DNA of 60,280 nt, counting the filler, from Globobulimina sp. (taxonomy: Eukaryota): NCBI GenBank assembly GCA_003354225.1. It is 11 parts of 11 records of this genome, joined end to end, with 100 filler letters (N's around TTAATTAATTAA, not from the genome) between each part and the next. Parts side by side here need not be neighbours in the genome. Positions count along the whole stretch, not along the records: positions 5,500 to 10,898 come from PIVH01000596.1; 10 more parts are not named here. One strand, written 5' to 3'. The position numbers and the translations under genes are program-made. A model generated the notes under the pieces. That model saw only the letters and a program-made list of their open reading frames with translations, made no database searches and was not told the DNA's origin. Below, piece after piece: positions 3,274-32,600 of the stretch. How positions within the stretch are numbered: the stretch's first letter is position 1; every line of letters starts with the position of its first letter.

Positions 3274-3419
3274 GCTTTCGAATTGATGTTAGAAGTTTCC
3301 TGAAGATTCTGCTACAAAAAATATTATATTTAAAGCAAACTAATCAAAATTCATATTTAAAGCATACAACAAAATATAAATAAACCTAAAATATGAAAGA
3401 AAAACAAGACTTCAATTCA

Positions 3420-5140
3420 TCACACAATATCAACAGAGCCTTTATTGGAAGAAGTTTGGCTTAAATTCGCAGTTGAATCCAATGAAGATCTTTTAGGTTT
3501 TCGTTTTTGTAAAAGTTGTGTTTCTGTTGTAGCGCTCATCACTCTTTGAAGGCATGGTGCTTTATCCCAATTTATCATATCATTCACTGTATCTTTATTG
3601 TTATTTGTTATCTTCGTACTTAATGTTGCCAACATATTTGGAACACCATCCATTGATTCTGACATTTTAATATGTGCATGAATTGGATTATTATCTTCGG
3701 CCGTTGCAGATAATAACAATGGTGTTGTTAAAAAATCTTTCTTTTCGCCGCTGGTGCTCATCTTTGAGGTGCCTAAAATACATATATTTCACACATGTTT
3801 TTTTTTGTATATTGTCAATATATACAAACATATGTTACAGATAACATATGTTTGAAGAGTCAAATTACAAAAACATTTGAGAAACATATTTCATAATTAT
3901 TTCTCAAATGTGTGTGTAAAATAAGTAGATCGAAATATGTGATGAAATTTGTGACCTAATCCATTGCTAAATAATTGCTGTTCTTTTTGCATTTTATCTC
4001 TCATTTTATAAAATTTATCTAAGCCCTCCATTTTAATCTGTTCATTTGCAGATTCATGCAGCCTTTTTGCGCGAAATGTAAGTATCCCAAATACAAATAT
4101 TAAGATCCAATTTACTAAAAATAGCATCATTGAAATATATCCAATTCTCCACCATGTTTGAACCACTACATTGTCATATTTCGGATTTATAAAATATACA
4201 AAAGCTGATGCTAAACAAACACCGCTATTCACAATTGGTGGTAATAATGCCGCGGATATTGCCACACCAATCAGTGCCGATACTTGGTCCGATGACACGC
4301 CTAAAGCTACGCCAATGCCTGATGGCGCTGCTATGCCTATATACAACCAACAAACAACAACATAATCATAAGTAACATAAATATCAGCAAATAGTTACCA
4401 GCTCCCCAGGCCAACGCTATCCATTGACCACGCGATGAAATTTGCGTATTTGTACCAAATGCTAGCTGCTCACCCCTTGGCATGTCCATAATTGGTGCAG
4501 TGATGAAGCCCAATATGGCGCCAGTTAGAAAACACACGCCAACGCCAATTAATTCGTTACGGAATGATTTCCATAACATAACTTTATCTTTGATTATCGC
4601 TCCAAATGTCATACCAACAATGGGACCCATTAATGGTGAGACTAACATAGAGGCAACCACTGCCACGGCAGAATTTGTTAGCAATCCAATGGCGGCGATG
4701 CATCCTCCAATAAATAGCAATGCTAAATAATCAAATGTCAAATGCAATTGTCCGTCAATTGTATCATATACTTCGTCATATGCCAAGCGATCAGATATTT
4801 TATATTTTCTTTTTTTTTTAATTTTTGAATAGCTTTCATCCAAACTTACTTCTTTTAGGGTGGCAACCCGCGGTTTTGTCGACGTTAAGGCAGAGATATT
4901 GAAATGACCAAAATTGGATGCTACTCCGTACATTGTTAATAGTTCTATGAGTTCATGTGTTTTTTTGTTGACCACCATAAAGGAAAATAAAACTGATTCA
5001 ATTTGTGATCCATTATGTAATTCGGAGGTTGTTATGCATTTTCGATATGATAAATGATGGACACTACGATTCATCATCAATACATCACGAATCTCATTTG
5101 AATGTTTTGATGGAACTATGACTTCCAGTTTACGTACCAT
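3420..5140 (-). CDS. DUF389 (TIGR00341-like) multi-pass membrane protein, 3 exons
   Basis: Motifs IAAIGLLTNSAVAVVASMLVSPLMGPI and LIGVAISAALLPP. Introns 4337-4398 and 3773-3955 join the three ORFs in frame. Confidence 0.85.
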
Positions 5141-5499: not shown

Positions 5500-7058
5500 T
5501 TGTTTTTCCCATGTAAATTGATATTGTGGTTTAATAAAACAAAACATATGCAACGCCATCAAAATAAACCCAAACAATGAGGGCAAATATGCCCAATAAA
5601 CTGCATACGGTGCATTGTTAATATATTTCACAGATTCACTCCATATAAACCCGGTAGTGACGGGACCAATCGCTCTCACTAAAGACGCACAGCTTTGTGC
5701 CAACCCATTTGCTTTACCGCAATGATTTGGTGGCACCGAATTATTTATAAAACACATGGAAATAACAAACAATATCGATGCAAATATAACCATTAATGTT
5801 TCACAGGCAAATGCACCAATTAATGCAACCCACGATTTGTTTAATAAATGGACTCTTGTCGTCCAATAGATAGACGGCATCAATATTATAGTAATTGCGA
5901 GCATGATGGAATTGAAAACGCCCATATTTCGGTGTTGAAAATGCTTTAAAAAATAGGGTTGAAAACAGAACGTAAATATTAACAAACTCGCACCGGACCA
6001 TGCTTGCGCATACCCAATGAATTGAGAATTGAATAACAATGCTTGCGCCATATAAACTGGATTCATTTCACGAAACATCATCACGCAAATTGCAATAATA
6101 ACATAGCATAAAAGTGTCTGAATTAAATCAGTTTGTCTCAGTAATTCCGACAACGAATTTATTTCTTTTTCGCTTGAATCATTATTAAATAACAGTGGCT
6201 TTCTTTGCTTATCATTTTCTGTCTCTGTCATAAAACCGCCAGTCAATATTGGTAACGACCAAGAATTATTCGTTTGATAAATACTCACTGCATTGTCAAA
6301 CATAGCAATATCGGACTTTGCAGTGATTGGATGAATGTCTGTCATAGATATTAAGTCAGAATCTAAATCATTATCTTTCTGATTTGCATAACCCATTGAA
6401 TCTTCTATATTTGCTAATTGTGTTAATCTGGCAGTTCTTGCTTGGTTCTCATTTTTAACCTGATATAATGTCCAAAATACTGCATTTCCTGATATTACTG
6501 CACCGGTTAAACACGGTAAAAGAAACGGAAAATCACTACCAAATATCCAAAATTTTAATATTCCAACAGTTGGTCTGTATTCATCATCGGGCAGATCCAC
6601 GTTATGTGTTTCAATCAGCAAACCACCCATCATCGAACCAAGAACATTTCCAAAACCAAACGAGATTGCAATGATCGAAAACGCAAAGCTACGGTTTGTC
6701 GAGTCTGTAATATCAGAGAGCCACGCTTTTATTACACCCAAATTGCCATTAAATAGACCACAAAGACATCTTGCTAGCATTGCATGAAAATATGACTTTG
6801 CAAATCCAAATACTACCACTCCAATTGTTGAGAAAAATAATCCTAACACTAAAGCTAAACGACGTCCATATTTATCTGAAAATGAACCTGTTTTTGGTTA
6901 ATTTTGTTTTTATTTATACACCGAAACCGAAATAGAAAATTGTTTACCCCAGAAATATGAAACCAGAAACTGGCAAAACATAAATGATGCGTTTAGTAAT
7001 GATGTATAAACTCCCAACATGTTTGTTTTTATGTATATATTTTTGCGGACATAGTCCT
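5500..7058 (-). CDS. MFS transporter (ZIFL/MFSD-like drug:H+ antiporter type), truncated at both ends; 5' part interrupted by the YR element
   Basis: FWG|SFSDKYGRR (MFS motif A across intron 6888-6947), ARCLCGLFNGNLGVIK, GKANGLAQS..SLVRAIGP. The upstream exon (IEDYVRKNIYIKTNMLGVY) lacks TM1 and abuts the element end. Confidence 0.85.
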
Positions 7059-7378
7059 CGATTGGCTACAACTACTAAATCAGATTGTGGAGTGGTTTTT
7101 GTCAAGCAATCAATAGAGTGGCTAAGCTGAAGCTGGACGCCTCCAGAGGTGAGCCAATCAATTGCTTGATGTTAAACAACAATATCGATAATTAATTATG
7201 GGATATAATCAATTGGTTGATATGTCTCAACAATCAATATAACCTAACTACCACTCGTCATAGCCAATCGTCCTAGACATGAATTATTCATGGTGTTAAT
7301 CATTTCAATTATTAATTCAATGTTAAATATAAATCACATTGATGTTTATAATTTATGTCTGAATACAAGGATATTTAT

Positions 7379-8482
7379 TCAAATTCTTTTTATTCTTTTC
7401 CTTTTCTTTGATAATGATTTCGGAGTTGTTTTCATGAGCTTTTTGGATAGTCGTTGGAGCCGATTATTCCTCATCTTAATATTTAGTTTTCTTTTCTTCA
7501 CAATTTTGTTGAATGCTTTGGTGGTGAATGTTTTGACTGTGTTGAAGCCTGATTGTTTGGCCACCATTTCGTGTAGGTGTTGCGGTTCCATTTTCATCTC
7601 ATAATACAACATTGTTGTGTTTGATTTCCACCCTGCCATTTTTTGTCTGGCAGTTGCACAAATTCCTATTTTTTTCATGTCATAATTACCTCCTCCTCGT
7701 GTTCCGTGCAATTTATGCTCAGCGGTGTCCAGTCCTTGATCTTCACAGATTATTTTGAATCTCGCTTTCAGTTTTTGATATGTTAAGACTGATCTGTCTT
7801 TTAACATCAACAAATTGTCCGTATCATTCCATTCTTTGGGTCTGAATTTATATAAACGGATAATTTCGCATAGAGCACATACTAAATTGTGTTTGCACCA
7901 ATGGAATAATGGGGCGGATTGTATGTTTCCGGCCTGATTTTTCTTTGAAAACGAGAACATGAAAATGGCGCTTTGATCGCTAGGCATCGGTGTTGACGTA
8001 CCGTTTTCGAAAACGATATTTTGCACTTGAATTTTGGTGAAGTTTTTTCTGATGAGTTCGTCACTCCTTCTGATGGTATTGTGTAGCATGGATATTCCTA
8101 CTCGATATATTTGGTTATTATATATCTTGTTGTTTAGGATTGGTGCTTTGAACCATGCCTTTATCATTTCGGAAGTGATTATTCTGGATCCGAGTCCTGG
8201 CGGTAATTCCACTTTCCTTCCGTCAAGCATGGCGTGAAATCTAGGCATTGCCTTCCTGTCTACTCTGATGACTGTGTCCAAGGTGGATAGGAATAGGTCT
8301 CTTATTCCATAGCATTCGGTTCGGATTGTTCCGGATTGTACTCCGTGTACTTTGAATCTATAGGCGCCATATAGGCATAATTTGTCTTGTGTTGCTATAG
8401 TTGGGCAATATCCGTATATTTTGTTCCATAGCATCCAGTGTTTCTGTGATAGGTTCCATGCGATGATTGTTCCTGCGGACAA
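7379..8482 (-). CDS. Tyrosine recombinase of the YR retrotransposon (frame open upstream to 8695, with no ATG in that stretch)
   Basis: Catalytic set R-K-HxxR-W-Y: HNTIRRSDEL, SKKNQ, HKLHGTRGGG, AGWKSNTTMLYY. Confidence 0.9.
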   Translation of the reverse strand: MSAGTIIAWNLSQKHWMLWNKIYGYCPTIATQDKLCLYGAYRFKVHGVQSGTIRTECYGIRDLFLSTLDTVIRVDRKAMPRFHAMLDGRKVELPPGLGSRIITSEMIKAWFKAPILNNKIYNNQIYRVGISMLHNTIRRSDELIRKNFTKIQVQNIVFENGTSTPMPSDQSAIFMFSFSKKNQAGNIQSAPLFHWCKHNLVCALCEIIRLYKFRPKEWNDTDNLLMLKDRSVLTYQKLKARFKIICEDQGLDTAEHKLHGTRGGGNYDMKKIGICATARQKMAGWKSNTTMLYYEMKMEPQHLHEMVAKQSGFNTVKTFTTKAFNKIVKKRKLNIKMRNNRLQRLSKKLMKTTPKSLSKKRKRIKRI

Positions 8483-8695
8483 TCTGTTGTGTATGAGGAA
8501 ATCACAATATTCTCCGAGCTCTGTTGTGTCGATCTTTGGCCATTGTAATTTACGTTTGTCGACTCTGTTAGACTTTGTTGTCTGTGTGTGGTGTTGTTTG
8601 TGTTTTTTAAGGTGTGCTGAGTTTTTTGGTTTTTGTAAGTATAAAAGAAAAACTGTTTTTAAGGCAAAATCATGGTTGCTTGCGCTGTCCTTTAT

Positions 8696-10669
8696 TTATT
8701 TTAATACAATGGGTTTTATGTATTGTGAATGCTTGCAAATGAATTCGCTGGCACATTTGCAGACGTATATCCATTTGGATTTGTCTCTGTTCTTGAAATC
8801 ATATACTGGTTTATAGTCCAATTGGTATTGGAATTTGGTTAATAGCTTGTCAATTGTGTTGCGGGCATTGGTTCTTTTTCTGTGCAATTTCATGGCCCTG
8901 TTTATTTGTTTTGGCATAGTGCCTCTGGATAATTTATCGGCGATTATGTTTTTCTTACCTTCGATGTGTTCAAGATAGAATTTGAAACCTGCTTTCCATG
9001 CTACCTGTACCAATACTTTAACCAATTCTGTTAAGTCTGGTCTCTGTAGACATGCACATTTTTTTACACATATCATGCATGCTGGCAAGTTGTCGCAGTA
9101 GAATAATATTTTTTTATTCTGGAATTGGTTTTGGTATAGCTCTGCTGCTGTGACTACACCCAATAGCTCTAAGAAGGTGATGTCTGGCAGTTTTCTCCAT
9201 GTTTGGAAGATTGGGTAATTGGACCAATTGTCACCGAAGTATCTACCATTATTCTTGTGTATGTAGCCTCCGACTCCAATGGAGGTGGAAGCATCTGTAT
9301 ATACCGTCATATCGCATGCTTCTTTTGTGCATGTTATCCATTCGAATGGCATTCTGTTCATCTCTGGGTTGAATATTATGTTTTTTATCATTTTGGTGTC
9401 TTTTATAGCTTGTTTCGTCGGGAATACATGGCTCAATTTTGTTGTCCATTTGTTATTGATCATTCTTCCTGGGACATTGGCCATGGCTTCAAGGGATCTT
9501 AGATATGGGATTAATATTGGCATCACCATTTGGATGCTTCTCATTTGTCCAATGACTGTTTGGAGGAACTTGAGTCGAATTGATTTGTTTTCGAGTATTA
9601 GTTGTGTCAGGTACATGATGGATTGCTGGTATTTGTGCAATCTCTTTTCTGTGACAGCTAATAATGCCAGTACTAAGTTGAAGATGAAGCCCAAGACTTC
9701 CAGTATTTTATTTGGGTGTGTGACTTTCTTGGGTTGTGTGGGAACACCCAATCCATCCCACCACCACATCAGGTGATCCATTTGGCGATGTGCGACCTCA
9801 ATGTTGTCGCTTGGGGTGCCTCCGATGAAGTCGTCGACATAATGCATTAGCAGATCTTGTTGTTTGTTATTCGCTTTTGTTTTGAATATAGATGGATAAT
9901 TATTTATAACTATCCAGTTGATCATGTCTGCGAATTCTGTGTATATTTTGGAGGAGCTGGCCATGCCCATTACTAATGTGTTGAAGAAGAAGCGCAGTCC
10001 GCATATTTTTATTCCAATCAGATGATGGAATTTTTTGGCAATCGGAACTGAATAGAAGGCCATCCATGCATCTACGGACCATAGCCATTTGATCTTGCAT
10101 GTTATTATCCATTGGATTATTTCTTTGATTACTATGTATTCGACTCTTTTATCTTCGTCGGGGACATTTTGGTTGAATGATCTGCCTTTTTCTTTGAAGG
10201 ATAGATTGACCAATAACCTATGTTTGCCTTCTTCCTTTTTGTAGAAGATTGGCCATTATTGTGGCGTTTGTCCGGGAAACTGTTTTTGGACTTCTTCGTC
10301 GTTTTTGAACGGGCCTAAAAACCTCTTGTGTTTTAGTAGCTTGAGTACTTTGTTGAGCCATGCTTCGATTTCAGCGATGGAGGCTTTATAGTTTTGCTCT
10401 GTTCCATCGCAAACAATTTCGTTTTTTGTGACTGGCCATCCGAGGGTATTATATTCAATCACTTGGTCAACTCGTTGTGGGTCAGGATGGTATTTTAGTC
10501 CATATCTCCACCAAATTTGACCGTTGAACCAATCAACTCTTTGTGTATTCGGAGTTATTCTGTTTAGTTCTTGCAGTATTGATTTTATGCGTTTGTGGTT
10601 AAGCACGGCTGAGCTGTCGTCTTGATATTTTTTATCTTGGACGAAATGTTTTGAGTTTACTGCGGGCAT
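8696..10669 (-). CDS. Reverse transcriptase-RNase H of the YR retrotransposon, with one in-frame TAA at 10256-10258
   Basis: RFLGPF...PQ*WPIFYKKEEGKHRLLVNLS...SFN, VDAWMAFYSVPI, LVMGMASSS, YVDDF, LEVLGF. RNase H motifs YTDAS, LELLGV, YCDN, NIIADKLSR. ORFs 10256-10669 and 8696-10213 share a frame. Confidence 0.9.
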
Positions 10670-11011
10670 AGCTGAGTTATGTCCGTTCTCTGTTTATTTT
10701 GAGATCTGAGTGCAAGGATTGGTTATTTTGTATGCGTATGATTTATAACTGCGATAAAAAATTAATTATTGTATAATAATAGGAATTATGTATAAAACGC
10801 ACATATTTATATAGCTTAGTCAAGTGTGTGCCGATTATGACACTTTCTTTCTTTTCTTTTTCCTTTTTATGTCGACCATGTATTGCTCCTTTCCTTCCNN
10901 NNNNNNNNNNNNNNNNNNNNNNNNNNNNNNNNNNNNNNNNNNTTAATTAATTAANNNNNNNNNNNNNNNNNNNNNNNNNNNNNNNNNNNNNNNNNNNNCG
11001 ACCTATATAAA

Positions 11012-27472: not shown

Positions 27473-30400
27473 CATGAGGTCCCAGCCCATTGCCAGGGCA
27501 TGCATGAGGATCGGAAGGTAGGTTTGCAGTCTCTACACAGAGACAAATGGCTCAATATTCAGAAAAATAACGCCATAATCTCCTTAAATCAGATGTACAA
27601 AAAAGCAATAAATAGGTACCGCACCACAAACAAAGAACTGCGCGAATATAAAAATTACATGGTCAGCAAAGTGATACAAGACTACATCACCAACGACCAG
27701 CACTCTGACGCAGACATTCCAGAAATCATTTTGAAGTATCCATTCATGCAAATATATGCTCCCGATGTTGAACCAATATCCTCCACAAAAATCAAAATAA
27801 AAAACCTAAAAATAGGATTCCTGAACATCAATGGCAAGGCCAAAACTAAAATCAACCAAATGCATCCATATATGCAGCAACTTGTCATGCATCACAAATT
27901 AGACATAATATTATTAATCGATACCAGAAGAGTCCATCGGCCCAATTGGAAACTGCCCGGATATAATTTAATGGTCCACAAAGCCCCAATTGCCACAAAT
28001 AATATACAAAATGTCGGAGGAATACTAATTTACTACAAATACACCCTCCGCAACAAACTAAAATTAGTGCAGAAAACTAAGGGCCATAACACCGCCTGGA
28101 TCTCAATACAGATTGAAGGACAATCGAAACCCTCTTACATTGCCATCAATTACGCCCGCACTTATAAGCCAAATCTCAGTGACCGCAGCCGTAAATTCTA
28201 TGACTCCCTGACTGCGGACATTAACAAATATAAATCGCATTGCCACAGTATGTATGTTATTGGCGATTTCAACGCCAGAATGGGCTCCATCACCATGGAT
28301 CATAATACCAATGGTCATTATCGATACATGAAAGATATGTTGGATAGAACTGGCCTAAAAATTGCAAACCCCCAATTTGCACCCAAATTCTTGACCTGTC
28401 TGGCTAAAGGATCCCAAAATAGTGGAGGTTCCATCATTGATTATGTCATCACCGACCAGTTGGCCACCATCCAGTCAATGAACGTTGATACTCATCCAGT
28501 GTTTGCTGACCACAGACCAGTAGTTTTCACGTTGAATAATATCAAATGCGAGACCAGCACCATTGATAAGCATCTGATCCTAAGATCCTATAAACCGAAT
28601 GACCAATTGATAGCAATCCATAAATCCATATTGGAGAATGCCACTAGGCACTTGGACAAATTCTCCACTTCCACGGAGCAATTCGATAATAAGAAAGATC
28701 ACATTTACATCTCCCATATAACATCGATCACCGCAGCCTACATAATACACCTTGCCACCATAAAAACGTTTGGTTTGTCTGACTATAATGCTTCCAATAA
28801 ATGGTCATATATCTCCCGCAAACAGGTTACACTAAATATAAAACAGAGACTATTAATGAACACAAATAACCAAACAAATGCAGGACAGCAGCTCATAAAA
28901 GATGCAGAGGAGCAATACACCCAAAATAGAATTGATACACTCACACAAAATACCATCCGTTTCGGCAATTTAGATCATGCGAATAAACTAAAAAAATTCA
29001 AAACATACAACAAAAACACAGATTTCATATTAGATGAACCATACCTACGTTATAAAAACACCATAATGGACAAAAACAAAGCACTTTCTGAATTCTTTTG
29101 TGATATAAACGGTCCAATTGATGACCCGACGAACAATCCACACATAACTGACATCAATGCGTTCCAAGGAGAGCTGCAAAAACATAACACGAATGACCTT
29201 AAATTCATTCCACAAAAACCAGATAAACGAACGCTGATTGACCCCCTGATACCCTGTCAACCCTCTGACCTCGGCGCGAGTTCTCCAGATAATGCCTCCA
29301 CAACAGATGACAACGAGCATGCAGTACCGCACTATGACCCGAACTATATACCGCCGACCCAGCCTTTATTGGATGAACTCTTCAATATTGAGTATGATGA
29401 TAATACCCATGACAGTGATAATGAAGTCGCCATTGAAATGGAGCTGGAGACAGCTGGTTTGACACCGGGCAACAAAATCAATCGTAAAACAAAATATAAA
29501 TCCATTGAAATGGCAGTTTCTTATGCCAATCAAAATAGTGCGCCGGGCTATGACGGCATAAAATCCATACACCTTAAAACAAATGGCCGCCAAATCAACA
29601 ACCTGCTTTGTGTCATGTTTAATGTATGGAATACTACTTACTTCATCCCATATTACTGGCGGCTTGGCTCCATCATCCCGATCCTAAAAACGAAAACAGG
29701 CGACACCCCCAATAGCTACAGACCCATAACATTGCTGCCTATCATATTCAAAGCCTATGAACGCTTAATACTGTGGGAAATGTCCATTACCCACAAGTTC
29801 CGACGTAATCTACACATACTGCAAGGCGGCAACCGTACGCGCAGAGGGGTCCCGGAGCAAATAGGCGCTATCAATTTAATTGCTGAAACTGCGAAGATGA
29901 GAGAGATTCCGCTATACAGTGCCTTGTTGGACATACGTAAAGCATTTGACACTGTGTGGCGTAAAGGGCTATTATATAAACTAAACACCCACTTCAATAT
30001 ACCACTAAACTTATGTAAAATAATCCAGGCTATCTATAACAACTCCCATTCTGCCATAAGAAATCTACCATTCATCACCAACAAATTCCTCCTCCACAAT
30101 GGCGTGCTCCAAGGATCTGTTTTATCGCCGGTACTATATGCTGCCTTTCTCGATGATCTCATTGAAGAGCTGCAACTGTCCAAATGTGGAGCGGCCTCAC
30201 CAGACCCGGATACCCCAATAGCTTGCACGTTGTACGCGGACGACATCATCTTGACTGCGAACAAGATCTCACACCTCAGCAAACTCCTGAAAATATGTGA
30301 GGGTCATAGCAGTAAATGGCGGTACCAATTCAATCAGAAAAAATGCAAAACAATAATCTATAATGATAATAGCATAAATAATAATAACATTGACTCATAC

Positions 30401-32600
30401 AACACCAATGACATCATTTTACTAAACCATGAATACTATACCAACCTGGGAATAAATAACGGCAAACCTGCCCCAATGATACTCCTTCAAAAGCCCATAA
30501 ATAATCAAATCACTGCAATAAATATCCATAATCAAATACAACATTACAATAAGAATGAGATACCGCAAAAACATCTAAATAGATTCCTTGATCACATAAA
30601 ATTCTATAATGATATAAACAATAAGCCTTTTCCAATAATGTGGGACAATATACGATATGATCGCCACTATTCCCCGTCGGTGATGCACTTGAAACTAAAA
30701 CTGAATGGAGCCAGTCTACACTGCACAACATTCATTAGATATCTTGGTGCAATGCTGTGCAGCTACGACATGACCAATCTGGTGTCGACCCAATATACAA
30801 ACGCCGCTTTTCTGAAAAAACTTGACTGTAAAGCCAGAATTTTGTCAGATTTGGATTTCAATCACGTTTATATCCCGCTCGATGATAAAATAAGAATCCT
30901 AAAAACATTCTATTTAGTTTACACAGAAATATTTGCACAAGTTTTAGATGGAGAGAAGATTAAACTAAAAGAAGCCGCAAACAAACAACTACAAACAATA
31001 CGTATACAAACAAGAATAAAGGAGTTTGTCCCGGAACAGCTATACCTTTGGGCCGGTATCCCAACACCTTATGAGCGATGGGTCTCCCTTAAAATTGCAT
31101 TTTATTGGAAATTACTAAAAGGCGGAGAAATTTCATTGATGCATAAATGGGCGCATCTGCCACATATTCATCACCATAAAATATACAAACAATACATTAA
31201 TCTAAGAAAAGAATGGCTGCCGCGACAAAAACAAATCATCCAAAATAAAGTCCATTGGATAGATCCATTCGACACTGTCACGCATTCCCATCAACTCAGA
31301 CCACTGATCGTTTTAAATCAACACAGACAAATTGTGAGAGGATTAAATCACTACCACCCCATAAAAACGCTAAACCACATAACAGATCACTACAAACCAA
31401 TGAATATTTACGAATATGACGAATTAGCCGAATATGTCAACAATGAAATGATCCTAAAATACAGAGCACTGTTTTATAATTTCAACCAAATGCTTAACCA
31501 TTGTAACATCTGCCATACTGACACCAAAACACCAATTGAGCATCACTTAGTAGTCCAATGTCCAGCATTAAACACTTTACGGCATGAATATTGGAATCAT
31601 GCTTCCTTCACCTTTTCCAAAAGCGGTGCCGCCATAAATCACATCCATCACCACCTATACATGCAGAGATTAATAGAAATGTGTTGCAATGTCAACTTCC
31701 ATAAAACCGCATTCTGGGAAATCATCTGTGGCGCCAATTATTATGATTCGGAAGATAATAAGTTTGCATATAAACATAGAAACATTGACATAAATAAAAT
31801 GAAAAACACCCTATACAGAGATGTCATTTCCCAGTCCCATAGATGGCTGTACCATGTCCTGCAGATTAACAATAATAAAACCACGATCAGTAGAATCCAA
31901 TGCAAACATAATTTAATACCATCCGAAATGATAATGTTCCACATAAGAAATGATAATTTACCGGAATGGCACCAATACAAACATAAATTGAGACCCAGTG
32001 ACATTATCATTGCCACTGACTCCTCCCATGACCCCCACACAAATACCACTGGCATTGGAATATGTATTATTGACAGAGGGAACATACATTGCTTTGCACA
32101 GCCAATAGGTGACCAAAGTAACCATTATGGCGAATTGTATGCCATTTTCAAATCCAAATTCCTTCTAAGCCATGGTAATATAAACACGACAAATCGAAGA
32201 ATTATAATCTTTACTGATTCATTATTCAACTTCCTTCCCTTAATAATCACCCCAAAACGACGAGAGAAAAATCCAAATTCTATCCTATTTAAAAACACAC
32301 AAAATTATATCAAAAACAACAAAATAACCCTTTGGAAAGTCAAATCACATACCAAGCCAAAACAACAACCCTTCAATCAAGTGGCAGATCTCCTAGCAGA
32401 AGTAGGACGAATGCATCCTAGGAACTCATGCTTCATAATCACCAATTTCAATTCCATACGATACGCCAAATACAAATCATTCCACTATCCAAGGGGTATT
32501 AGACCCTGCCAACTTTATTCTCTCACCGGGATGTTCAAGCAATTGGTGAGTATGGAGCCAGACTTGGACCCTGGCTGAATGTGCCCCCACTACTACTACA
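27473..32600 (+). mobile_element. Non-LTR retrotransposon (LINE) ending in a short (TAC)n tail; 5' end beyond contig
   Basis: Single long ORF; stop at 32578 followed about 10 bp later by CACTACTACTAC, then an abrupt change to T-rich host sequence. Confidence 0.92.
27500..32578 (+). CDS. LINE ORF2: APE endonuclease, RT, CCHC-like finger, RNase H (frame open to contig edge 27473)
   Basis: EN: FLNING, GDFNA, IIDY, ADHRPV. RT: APGYDGI, YRPITLL, DIRKAFDTV, QGSVLSP, YADD, RYLG. Finger: CNICH...EHHLVVQCP. RNase H: ATDSS, GELYAI, FTDS, KVKSH, NQVADLLA. Confidence 0.95.
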   Translation: MHEDRKVGLQSLHRDKWLNIQKNNAIISLNQMYKKAINRYRTTNKELREYKNYMVSKVIQDYITNDQHSDADIPEIILKYPFMQIYAPDVEPISSTKIKIKNLKIGFLNINGKAKTKINQMHPYMQQLVMHHKLDIILLIDTRRVHRPNWKLPGYNLMVHKAPIATNNIQNVGGILIYYKYTLRNKLKLVQKTKGHNTAWISIQIEGQSKPSYIAINYARTYKPNLSDRSRKFYDSLTADINKYKSHCHSMYVIGDFNARMGSITMDHNTNGHYRYMKDMLDRTGLKIANPQFAPKFLTCLAKGSQNSGGSIIDYVITDQLATIQSMNVDTHPVFADHRPVVFTLNNIKCETSTIDKHLILRSYKPNDQLIAIHKSILENATRHLDKFSTSTEQFDNKKDHIYISHITSITAAYIIHLATIKTFGLSDYNASNKWSYISRKQVTLNIKQRLLMNTNNQTNAGQQLIKDAEEQYTQNRIDTLTQNTIRFGNLDHANKLKKFKTYNKNTDFILDEPYLRYKNTIMDKNKALSEFFCDINGPIDDPTNNPHITDINAFQGELQKHNTNDLKFIPQKPDKRTLIDPLIPCQPSDLGASSPDNASTTDDNEHAVPHYDPNYIPPTQPLLDELFNIEYDDNTHDSDNEVAIEMELETAGLTPGNKINRKTKYKSIEMAVSYANQNSAPGYDGIKSIHLKTNGRQINNLLCVMFNVWNTTYFIPYYWRLGSIIPILKTKTGDTPNSYRPITLLPIIFKAYERLILWEMSITHKFRRNLHILQGGNRTRRGVPEQIGAINLIAETAKMREIPLYSALLDIRKAFDTVWRKGLLYKLNTHFNIPLNLCKIIQAIYNNSHSAIRNLPFITNKFLLHNGVLQGSVLSPVLYAAFLDDLIEELQLSKCGAASPDPDTPIACTLYADDIILTANKISHLSKLLKICEGHSSKWRYQFNQKKCKTIIYNDNSINNNNIDSYNTNDIILLNHEYYTNLGINNGKPAPMILLQKPINNQITAINIHNQIQHYNKNEIPQKHLNRFLDHIKFYNDINNKPFPIMWDNIRYDRHYSPSVMHLKLKLNGASLHCTTFIRYLGAMLCSYDMTNLVSTQYTNAAFLKKLDCKARILSDLDFNHVYIPLDDKIRILKTFYLVYTEIFAQVLDGEKIKLKEAANKQLQTIRIQTRIKEFVPEQLYLWAGIPTPYERWVSLKIAFYWKLLKGGEISLMHKWAHLPHIHHHKIYKQYINLRKEWLPRQKQIIQNKVHWIDPFDTVTHSHQLRPLIVLNQHRQIVRGLNHYHPIKTLNHITDHYKPMNIYEYDELAEYVNNEMILKYRALFYNFNQMLNHCNICHTDTKTPIEHHLVVQCPALNTLRHEYWNHASFTFSKSGAAINHIHHHLYMQRLIEMCCNVNFHKTAFWEIICGANYYDSEDNKFAYKHRNIDINKMKNTLYRDVISQSHRWLYHVLQINNNKTTISRIQCKHNLIPSEMIMFHIRNDNLPEWHQYKHKLRPSDIIIATDSSHDPHTNTTGIGICIIDRGNIHCFAQPIGDQSNHYGELYAIFKSKFLLSHGNINTTNRRIIIFTDSLFNFLPLIITPKRREKNPNSILFKNTQNYIKNNKITLWKVKSHTKPKQQPFNQVADLLAEVGRMHPRNSCFIITNFNSIRYAKYKSFHYPRGIRPCQLYSLTGMFKQLVSMEPDLDPG

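Follow-up and report, generated by a model that had tools for sequence, protein, structure and literature searches.

The window analysed here, a stretch of 60,280 nucleotides of Globobulimina sp. DNA in which separate contigs are chained by runs of N, contains on the minus strand of one contig (PIVH01000596.1, C596; positions 5500-10898) a tyrosine recombinase (YR) retrotransposon, which is described below together with its relatives in the same genome assembly (G000; 70.2 Mb, 48,370 contigs). The host is a eukaryote with the standard genetic code and short GT-AG introns of about 50-145 nt (read by eye), whose sites are of the same kinds as those considered here, AAG acceptors included. One minus-strand frame of the element comprises 145 codons, a TAA at 10258-10256, 519 codons, a TAA at 8698-8696 and an open YR frame of 438 codons (8695-7382) that is closed by a TGA at 7381-7379 (Table 1). 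The initial annotation had interpreted this arrangement as reverse transcriptase-RNase H (RT-RH) and YR in a single frame, joinable by an intron running from a donor at 8707 to an acceptor at 8582 or by readthrough of the TAA at 8696, in a divergent lineage of YR retroelements. It had overlooked the first stop, which falls after the ATG at 10669 and ahead of the RT core, at a position occupied by a sense codon in all eight relatives compared; relatives with an intact RT have open frames of about 590-690 codons. Since this stop precedes the RT core, the window copy would be unable to make RT-RH, fused or not. The contig carries no gag and ends some 230 nt upstream of the RT ATG. Judged by its sequence, the window copy is RT-defective and unremarkable as a single copy, and the part worth following is the likely splicing of a shared exon across its family.

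Table 1. Features of the element copy and its surroundings (window coordinates), and hairpin sites in family members (locus coordinates).
Feature	Position	Strand	Remarks
RT-RH N-terminal part, first ATG to premature stop	10259..10669	-	aligns with RT N-termini of relatives
Candidate phase-0 RT acceptor position	10646..10648	-	putative; CAG in sister copy L006, CAT here
Premature in-frame TAA inside RT	10256..10258	-	sense codon in 8 relatives
RT core (YVDD) with RNase H (D, E, D, D) and C-terminal CxC-C tail; methylase absent	8699..10255	-	RVT_1 in relatives, not in this copy alone
Donor GTATTA of the initial annotation	8702..8707	-	phase 0; weak, not conserved
True RT-RH stop TAA	8696..8698	-	RT of relatives ends at same place
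Spacer, non-coding and prone to indels: T tract, branch-point-like CTTAC, A/C-rich run, phase-0 CAG at end	8582..8695	-	
Tyrosine recombinase exon, 400 codons, ATG absent until 8434	7379..8581	-	PF00589 above cut-off in relatives C509, C363
Doubled ACGA(G/T)TGG motif directly before repeat B	7251..7271	-	also in C509, C584, C13, C363
Terminal repeat B, 228 nt, element 3' end, terminating in junction core AAAC	7025..7252	-	
Spacer upstream of RT to contig end	10670..10898	-	gag exons on C4198, C8304, C37167, C25744
Host MFS transporter gene adjoining element 3' end	5500..7020	-	intron 6947-6888; first ~28 profile positions apparently missing
Hairpin sites	L076:3052, L077:3851, L078:4122, L138:3557 and 3619, L114:46, L191:2076, L199:2981		

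Pfam searches with the window proteins alone match neither RT nor YR, and it is relatives that rise above the cut-off for RVT_1 or PF00589. The window YR is 26% identical to that of C509 (E 1e-19), the catalytic R, K, H-x-x-R, W and Y are invariant in 6/6 aligned YRs, and the Atlas neighbours of the window YR at 0.98 are eukaryotic YR clusters; a PDB sequence search returned an RT of the murine leukaemia virus (MLV) type with E 1e-3 and, for Cre, nothing better than E 2.3. An AlphaFold model of the YR (six sequences) had a predicted local distance difference test (pLDDT) score of 41 and was not used, a metagenome scan with a single YR query gave 98 stretches of which none was confirmed, and comparison of the host gene with phage records gave no match, which is uninformative. 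The family has at least 74 matches in G000 for RT and at least 44, 61 and 101 for YR with three queries, these being lower bounds on matches and not copy numbers. The initial annotation saw no DAM methylase, and indeed no Dam or methylase match was found in the window RT or in the RTs of five relatives, the control P0020 matching Dam as it should; only about 75 residues follow the RNase H. A quick RT tree, which has weak deep support and includes no named reference sequences, places the family apart from methylase-bearing RTs, the DIRS-type RTs with a methylase tail (P0020-P0023) forming a separate starred branch.

A gag-like open reading frame (ORF), RT/RH and YR follow one another in that order and orientation in the complete members (C509, C363, C286, C170, C231 and C84), which read ORF1, ORF2 (with a Cys/His knuckle and often RGG-rich), RT/RH and YR; the same order in the window subfamily was assembled from pieces on several contigs. 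The gag ORFs are identified by position and by the C-terminal Cys/His knuckle, Pfam and Atlas giving weak leads (best Atlas value for gag exon 2, 0.87, a lead only). The overall layout is A1 - gag exon(s) 1 - gag exon 2 - RT/RH - YR - B1 - A2 - spacer - B2, and the DNA directly displays non-overlapping ORFs in varying frames, split direct repeats and a short junction core at both ends. Within the C509 clade, contigs C7314 and C20521 read YR-B1-A2-spacer-B2-flank, C35890 is a solo A-spacer-B copy, and both ends and the junction have TATAAT in common. Five other contigs whose flanks differ, together with a sixth that stops there, place the 3' end of the window subfamily at 7025, its repeat A meets host flanks in four contigs, C19621 is a B-A junction and C12308 runs from A through the spacer to the start of B, with the core AAAC throughout; an empty site was found for neither core. 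Sequencing run X1 yields repeat B as a separate 228-nt contig (7025-7252) with a depth of 69.4 versus 35.2 for the adjacent sequence and with a second upstream sequence. In the window contig itself the order is YR-B-flank, without A2-spacer-B2, which may reflect either assembly collapse or recombination between B1 and B2. In five element contigs (C509, C363, C191, C91 and C143) the two ends overlap by 119 nt and close the contig, a pattern compatible with collapsed repeats, tandem copies or circles; split repeats were not seen by self-comparison in 14 contigs of the phase-1 clade described below, where assembly collapse is likely. DIRS1-like inverted repeats were not found in nine contigs; the repeats found in the family are direct ones. 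Judged by this structure, the family is Ngaro-like.

Family rows for the study of splice-site patterns were anchored by tblastn, and duplicates, loci below an identity cut-off (28-55%) and loci with too little upstream DNA were removed (17/38 anchored loci were kept in the first acceptor table, for example, and 7/16 in the second). Throughout the C170 clade a YAG, where Y is a pyrimidine, stands at one offset before the YR in phase 1 (17/17), with varying flanking codons, an in-frame stop no more than 60 nt upstream in 13/17 rows and an ATG within five codons in 1/17. The same clade has a phase-1 YAG before RT in 7/7 rows (one shifted by a codon) and a YAG before gag exon 2 (ORF2) in 6/6, read by eye. 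All sites in the C114 clade are also in phase 1, with a YAG before YR in 10/10, before RT in 9/9 and before ORF2 in 9/9. All those of the C509 clade are in phase 0: an AG precedes RT in 9/9 rows and ORF2 in 6/6, and the AG before YR holds one offset in 14/17 and lies within two codons in 17/17 (13 AAG, 4 CAG). The phase-0 CAG at 8582 of the window subfamily is retained in L002, L003 and L004, the indels lying upstream of it, and L002 and L004 keep an unbroken frame downstream of it over the available sequence. Similarly, the YR of C13, C748 and the outside locus L179 opens at a T-rich pyrimidine tract and a phase-0 YAG and has no ATG for at least 60 codons thereafter (in C748, none in the 63 codons available). 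In many elements the first ATG lies 58-127 codons inside conserved domains.

The conserved AG that opens the YR across relatives makes 8582 the likely YR acceptor, as first proposed, with good support beyond what chance would give, and its resemblance to the 3' end of the first intron of a RUVBL1-like host gene is real. The open stretch of 71 codons without ATG that had been noted after the RT-RH stop needs qualification: the first ATG of the YR frame is indeed codon 88 (8434-8432), within the N-terminal region of the recombinase, but the acceptor is reached after 38 codons and homology to outside relatives begins at codon 46. A phase-1 acceptor at 8521, common to C13, was also considered and dropped, as outside homologues extend the homology upstream and C13 and C748 have a common phase-0 site.

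Donors were scored with a matrix built from 14 host donors picked by eye in the window, which score 0.1 to 7.2 on their own matrix. ORF1, or gag exon 1, ends in a conserved GT that is in phase 1 in 17/17, 7/7 and 5/5 rows and is maintained in the phase-1 clade even where the Gly changes to Ser; in six phase-1 elements this donor scores 4.5, compared with -0.3 or less for other conserved phase-1 donors in gag1, gag2 and RT. A phase-0 donor is present at the end of gag exon 1 in 12/13 rows of the C509 clade, and the canonical phase-0 donors GTATG of C286 and C363 are consistent with splicing from this exon. In the gag of the window subfamily (C4198, C8304, C37167 and C25744), gag exon 2 is preceded by two exons, both with phase-0 GT ends, and one of the donors is host-like (3.5). 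Donor phase equals the phase of all three acceptors, namely phase 1 in one clade and phase 0 elsewhere. On the quick RT tree the phase label changes once, the 10 phase-1 rows falling into a single starred clade, and by our own arithmetic there is a probability of roughly 1 in 81 that the two enzymes would agree with the donor in both lineages by chance.

From these DNA patterns alone, we consider it probable that this is a Ngaro-like family in which one gag exon is alternatively spliced to gag-C, RT-RH or YR. The broader proposition, which we hold somewhat less firmly while still leaning towards it, is that of a YR-retrotransposon radiation in which spliceosomal choice among alternative 3' splice sites replaced ORF overlap and frameshifting, the donor and its three acceptors having shifted phase together. 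A single transcript would start in repeat A, and the gag exon-1 donor would be joined to one of the three acceptors to yield Gag, Gag1-RT/RH or Gag1-YR, with the Gag1 piece supplying the start codon. As a stop follows the donor, unspliced RNA would encode only Gag1; we propose that this RNA is the template for reverse transcription, which would explain why introns persist in DNA copies. Gag1 would probably bring the enzymes into the particle or the nucleus, a guess from its basic, helical and charged make-up. The YR would then insert circular cDNA at the short core (AAAC in the window subfamily), such integration at a short core being described for the DIRS order (PMC7192593, PMC3266345). In the window copy, 8582 would be the YR acceptor and its partner an upstream gag exon outside the contig.

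Several observations weigh against this account. The GTTAAG donor of the window subfamily (-5.3) and the GTTTAG donor of the C509 clade (-5.4) score below all 14 host donors and could be merely conserved ORF ends, while C1999 has no donor. The predicted splices would skip 1.4-3.9 kb, far beyond the host introns, and no processed, intron-less copy was found among 211 loci. With just one change of phase on the RT tree, these counts represent some two independent lineages. RT retains an ATG in 4/5 rows of the window subclade and may therefore be self-starting there; C13 has no good phase-0 acceptor before RT, and the candidate CAG of L006 is CAT in the window copy. The initial annotation had held that a YR-specific ATG in other copies, with no spliced reads, would count against joined expression, and such starts do occur in some outside relatives: the three outside YR homologues P0017-P0019 begin with Met at window codon 46, exactly where homology starts, and the outside locus L180 has its own YR ATG, so that splicing to gag would not be universal. 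Run X1 behaves as DNA, with neither the host intron 6888-6947 nor 8707^8582 joined in it, and junctions missing from it therefore count neither for nor against splicing.

The TAA at 8698-8696 is confirmed as the RT-RH stop, with the YR in the same open frame downstream, and programmed readthrough into an RT-RH-YR polyprotein would suit the open spacer frame of the window copy and C584 and the retention of the TAA in L004, the one close copy that spans it. The YR is open directly after the RT stop in only 2/16 elements, and the frame is not kept among close copies: the spacer of L002 is one base shorter, that of L003 is degenerate and shifted, and that of L004 has undergone both a deletion and an insertion, between which stops occur. 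On these two grounds readthrough fails, and we give it almost no credence. X1, which is possibly the window's own sequencing source, also has a one-base deletion at 8600 with a depth of 37.9 of 53.1, and the RNA after the stop has no unusual structure (z = 0.29). Among 16 elements with both ORF ends, the YR is in the RT frame in 7, at +1 in 5 and at +2 in 4, and 7/16 is not above one third (p = 0.26). [quoted passage not shown] As part of the shared-exon account, the in-frame arrangement of the window copy is probably incidental and TAA 8696 an ordinary stop. A second route to the same fusion protein, removal of an intron 8707^8582 or one with a similar donor near the RT end, is improbable. 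GTATTA at 8707 and CAG at 8584-8582 are, as had been noted, both in phase 0 and 126 nt apart, a length that fits host introns; both survive in L004, and a Val codon provides a phase-0 GT near the RT end in 7/16 rows of the C509 clade. Yet the 8707 donor scores -3.1, a chance-level value equalled by 22 of the 49 GTs in the RT frame, and C13, C748 and L179 have no phase-0 GT in the last 15 codons shown. The best common GT near the RT end of the phase-1 clade occurs in 4/14 rows only, no phase-matched donor is conserved at RT ends in 14 and 16 rows, and none that is host-like and conserved was found in the RT of six phase-1, six phase-0 and four window-clade elements (best 0.18). Such a fusion would leave the same acceptor pattern before RT and gag exon 2 unexplained, and the window RT is broken upstream. 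Of the divergent lineage expressing its recombinase by splicing or readthrough, a YR element without methylase, most likely spliced, is what stands.

A less distant competitor, though still an unlikely one, accepts the AGs as true 3' splice sites and gives them another 5' partner, a short leader exon or a trans-spliced leader, so that no long Gag tag would be added. It would account for the acceptor-like TTTTTAG before the ATG of gag exon 1 in several elements, for an AG followed immediately by ATG in 3/17 rows of the C509 clade and 6/10 of the C114 clade, for the weak C509-clade donor and for an earlier short phase-0 exon in the window subfamily. One trans-spliced leader would, however, be unable to serve phase-0 and phase-1 ORFs in the same genome, in most of the ORFs no ATG appears over a stretch ranging from tens of codons to over 100, an ordinary ATG and a cis intron are present in the host gene that was checked, and the acceptor phase of the phase-1 clade equals the phase of its gag exon-1 donor. 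It is also doubtful, and more so, that splicing is absent altogether, the AGs being by-products and the enzymes being made from subgenomic RNAs with internal promoters or by reinitiation, starting at ATGs of their own or at non-AUG codons. In the window subfamily, TATA-like words upstream of both the RT ATG and an additional ORF would suit such expression, as would the Met starts of P0001-P0011 and P0017-P0019 and the start of L180; the deep position of the first ATG within conserved domains argues against it, as does the fact that no near-cognate start is conserved after the AG and that the AG is fixed while flanking codons vary. An altered genetic code in which TAA is sense was ruled out, since host ORFs and those of a Ty3/gypsy element in the window, of 466-1827 codons, are open under the standard code; it is also contradicted at 10256, where relatives have a sense codon.

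Like Ngaro, the family has a gag-like ORF, RT/RH and YR in this order and no methylase, split direct repeats of the form A1-ORFs-B1-A2-B2 and solo A-B copies (PMC8547959, PMC9210276, PMC3783388). Unlike Ngaro, its gag is split by introns, most of its RT and YR ORFs have no start codon and begin at putative splice acceptors, a spacer of about 80-250 nt separates A2 from B2, some subfamilies have an extra ORF, and no SGNH hydrolase was seen. With DIRS1-like and PAT-like elements the family shares RT/RH plus YR and the lack of a protease or DDE integrase (PMC7192593, PMC3266345, PMC4157794), and with PAT, which is defined by a methyltransferase domain plus split direct repeats, it shares the latter (PMC4157794). 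It is set apart from these groups by having no methyltransferase domain, neither inverted terminal repeats (ITR) nor an internal complementary region (ICR), and no long ORF overlap. In VIPER/TATE elements the YR comes before RT/RH, whereas it comes after in 16/16 elements of the window family. The ends of VIPER/TATE are SIRE-derived (PMC7192593).

The proposed expression has partial parallels elsewhere. As in Ty1/copia elements (EVD, BARE1 and Drosophila copia), splicing would set the ratio of structural to enzymatic products and unspliced RNA would be the genome (PMC5580714), although there the spliced RNA is gag-only and Pol comes from unspliced RNA, whereas the window family would splice Gag, RT and YR alike. 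Retroviral subgenomic mRNAs (env) likewise use one 5' donor and alternative downstream acceptors, as described for multiply spliced mRNAs (PMC12789967). Unlike in retroviruses, the 5' exon of the window family is a long coding piece (about 165-740 codons) that would be fused in frame to each product, and integration is by a tyrosine recombinase. Foamy viruses make pol from a spliced mRNA. Elements of the DIRS order are described by three ORFs and their overlaps (PMC7192593, PMC3266345, PMC3783388, PMC8547959, PMC9210276, PMC4157794), and the translation route of the downstream RT and YR ORFs is not given in the accessible literature, including PMC6681497, PMC5633606 and PMC9940879. No description of spliced RT or YR expression was found there for this order; the 2004 Ngaro paper, the 2015 review and Repbase notes could hold precedent, and 'splic' and 'intron' are absent from the accessible text of the fungal (PMC3783388), Xenopus (PMC9210276) and DIRS1 overview (PMC3266345) papers. 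On this question of RT and YR translation the family offers a precise answer, three named junctions per element predicted from DNA. If it is correct, replication of a retrotransposon would need the host spliceosome for every full-length protein, recombinase elements would have a parallel to retroviral splicing, and ORF calling based on ATG would miss the real N-termini of such elements.

Further features of the family deserve mention. A near-perfect hairpin, CATGACAT...ATGTCATG, lies in the spacer between gag2 and RT of phase-1 elements and of the distant C286 (8 distinct sites in 223 loci; Table 1), and is a possible packaging, priming or splice-control signal. Additional ORFs, some of them with an ATG of their own, lie between gag and RT or downstream of YR, at L006:275-703 (no convincing Pfam match), L069 (C748) oriented 1931-2635, L152 (C283) oriented 3321-4046 and L139 (C479) oriented 3620-5113. 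Three tandem 63-nt repeats lie just upstream of the RT ORF at L068 (C13) 3518-3712, the sole element without a clear RT acceptor. Two deletions that join RT to YR lack GT-AG ends: at L024 (C22737) 590-610 an internal deletion joins RT residues 1-175 in frame to YR residues 147-321, and at L003 (C8304) 1097-1169 RT is dropped at a 6-nt microhomology. Depth in X1 over the YR part is about 6-8 times that over RT, a hint of many RT-less copies. Past the B-A junction of L019 (C19621), at 675-751, comes part of repeat B in inverted orientation. The insertion of an element at L202 (C4717) 1051-1992 has left a host-like ORF continuous, in frame, with gag exon 1, and another element, near position 819 of L156 (C9792), interrupts a related element's YR at the TATAAT core. 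In the window copy, 4 nt separate the 3' end from a downstream ATG that shares the frame of the host MFS exon (7018-7025); as this gene seemingly lacks its first helix, the insertion may have split it, and no empty site was found for it.

The window also contains other mobile elements. A Ty3/gypsy element on the next contig (10999-16390, plus strand) has a gag with Cys/His fingers and, in a different frame, a pol of 1425 codons (RT, RH and integrase) with a long insert between RH and integrase. An intact-looking ORF of about 1700 codons at 27482-32578 (plus strand) belongs to a retrotransposon without long terminal repeats (non-LTR), with an APE endonuclease, RT and an RNase H-like C-terminus recognized by eye. 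Finally, four 25-nt tandem repeats and nested inverted repeats at a contig start (22058-22157 and 22249-22443) are possibly the end of a DNA transposon.

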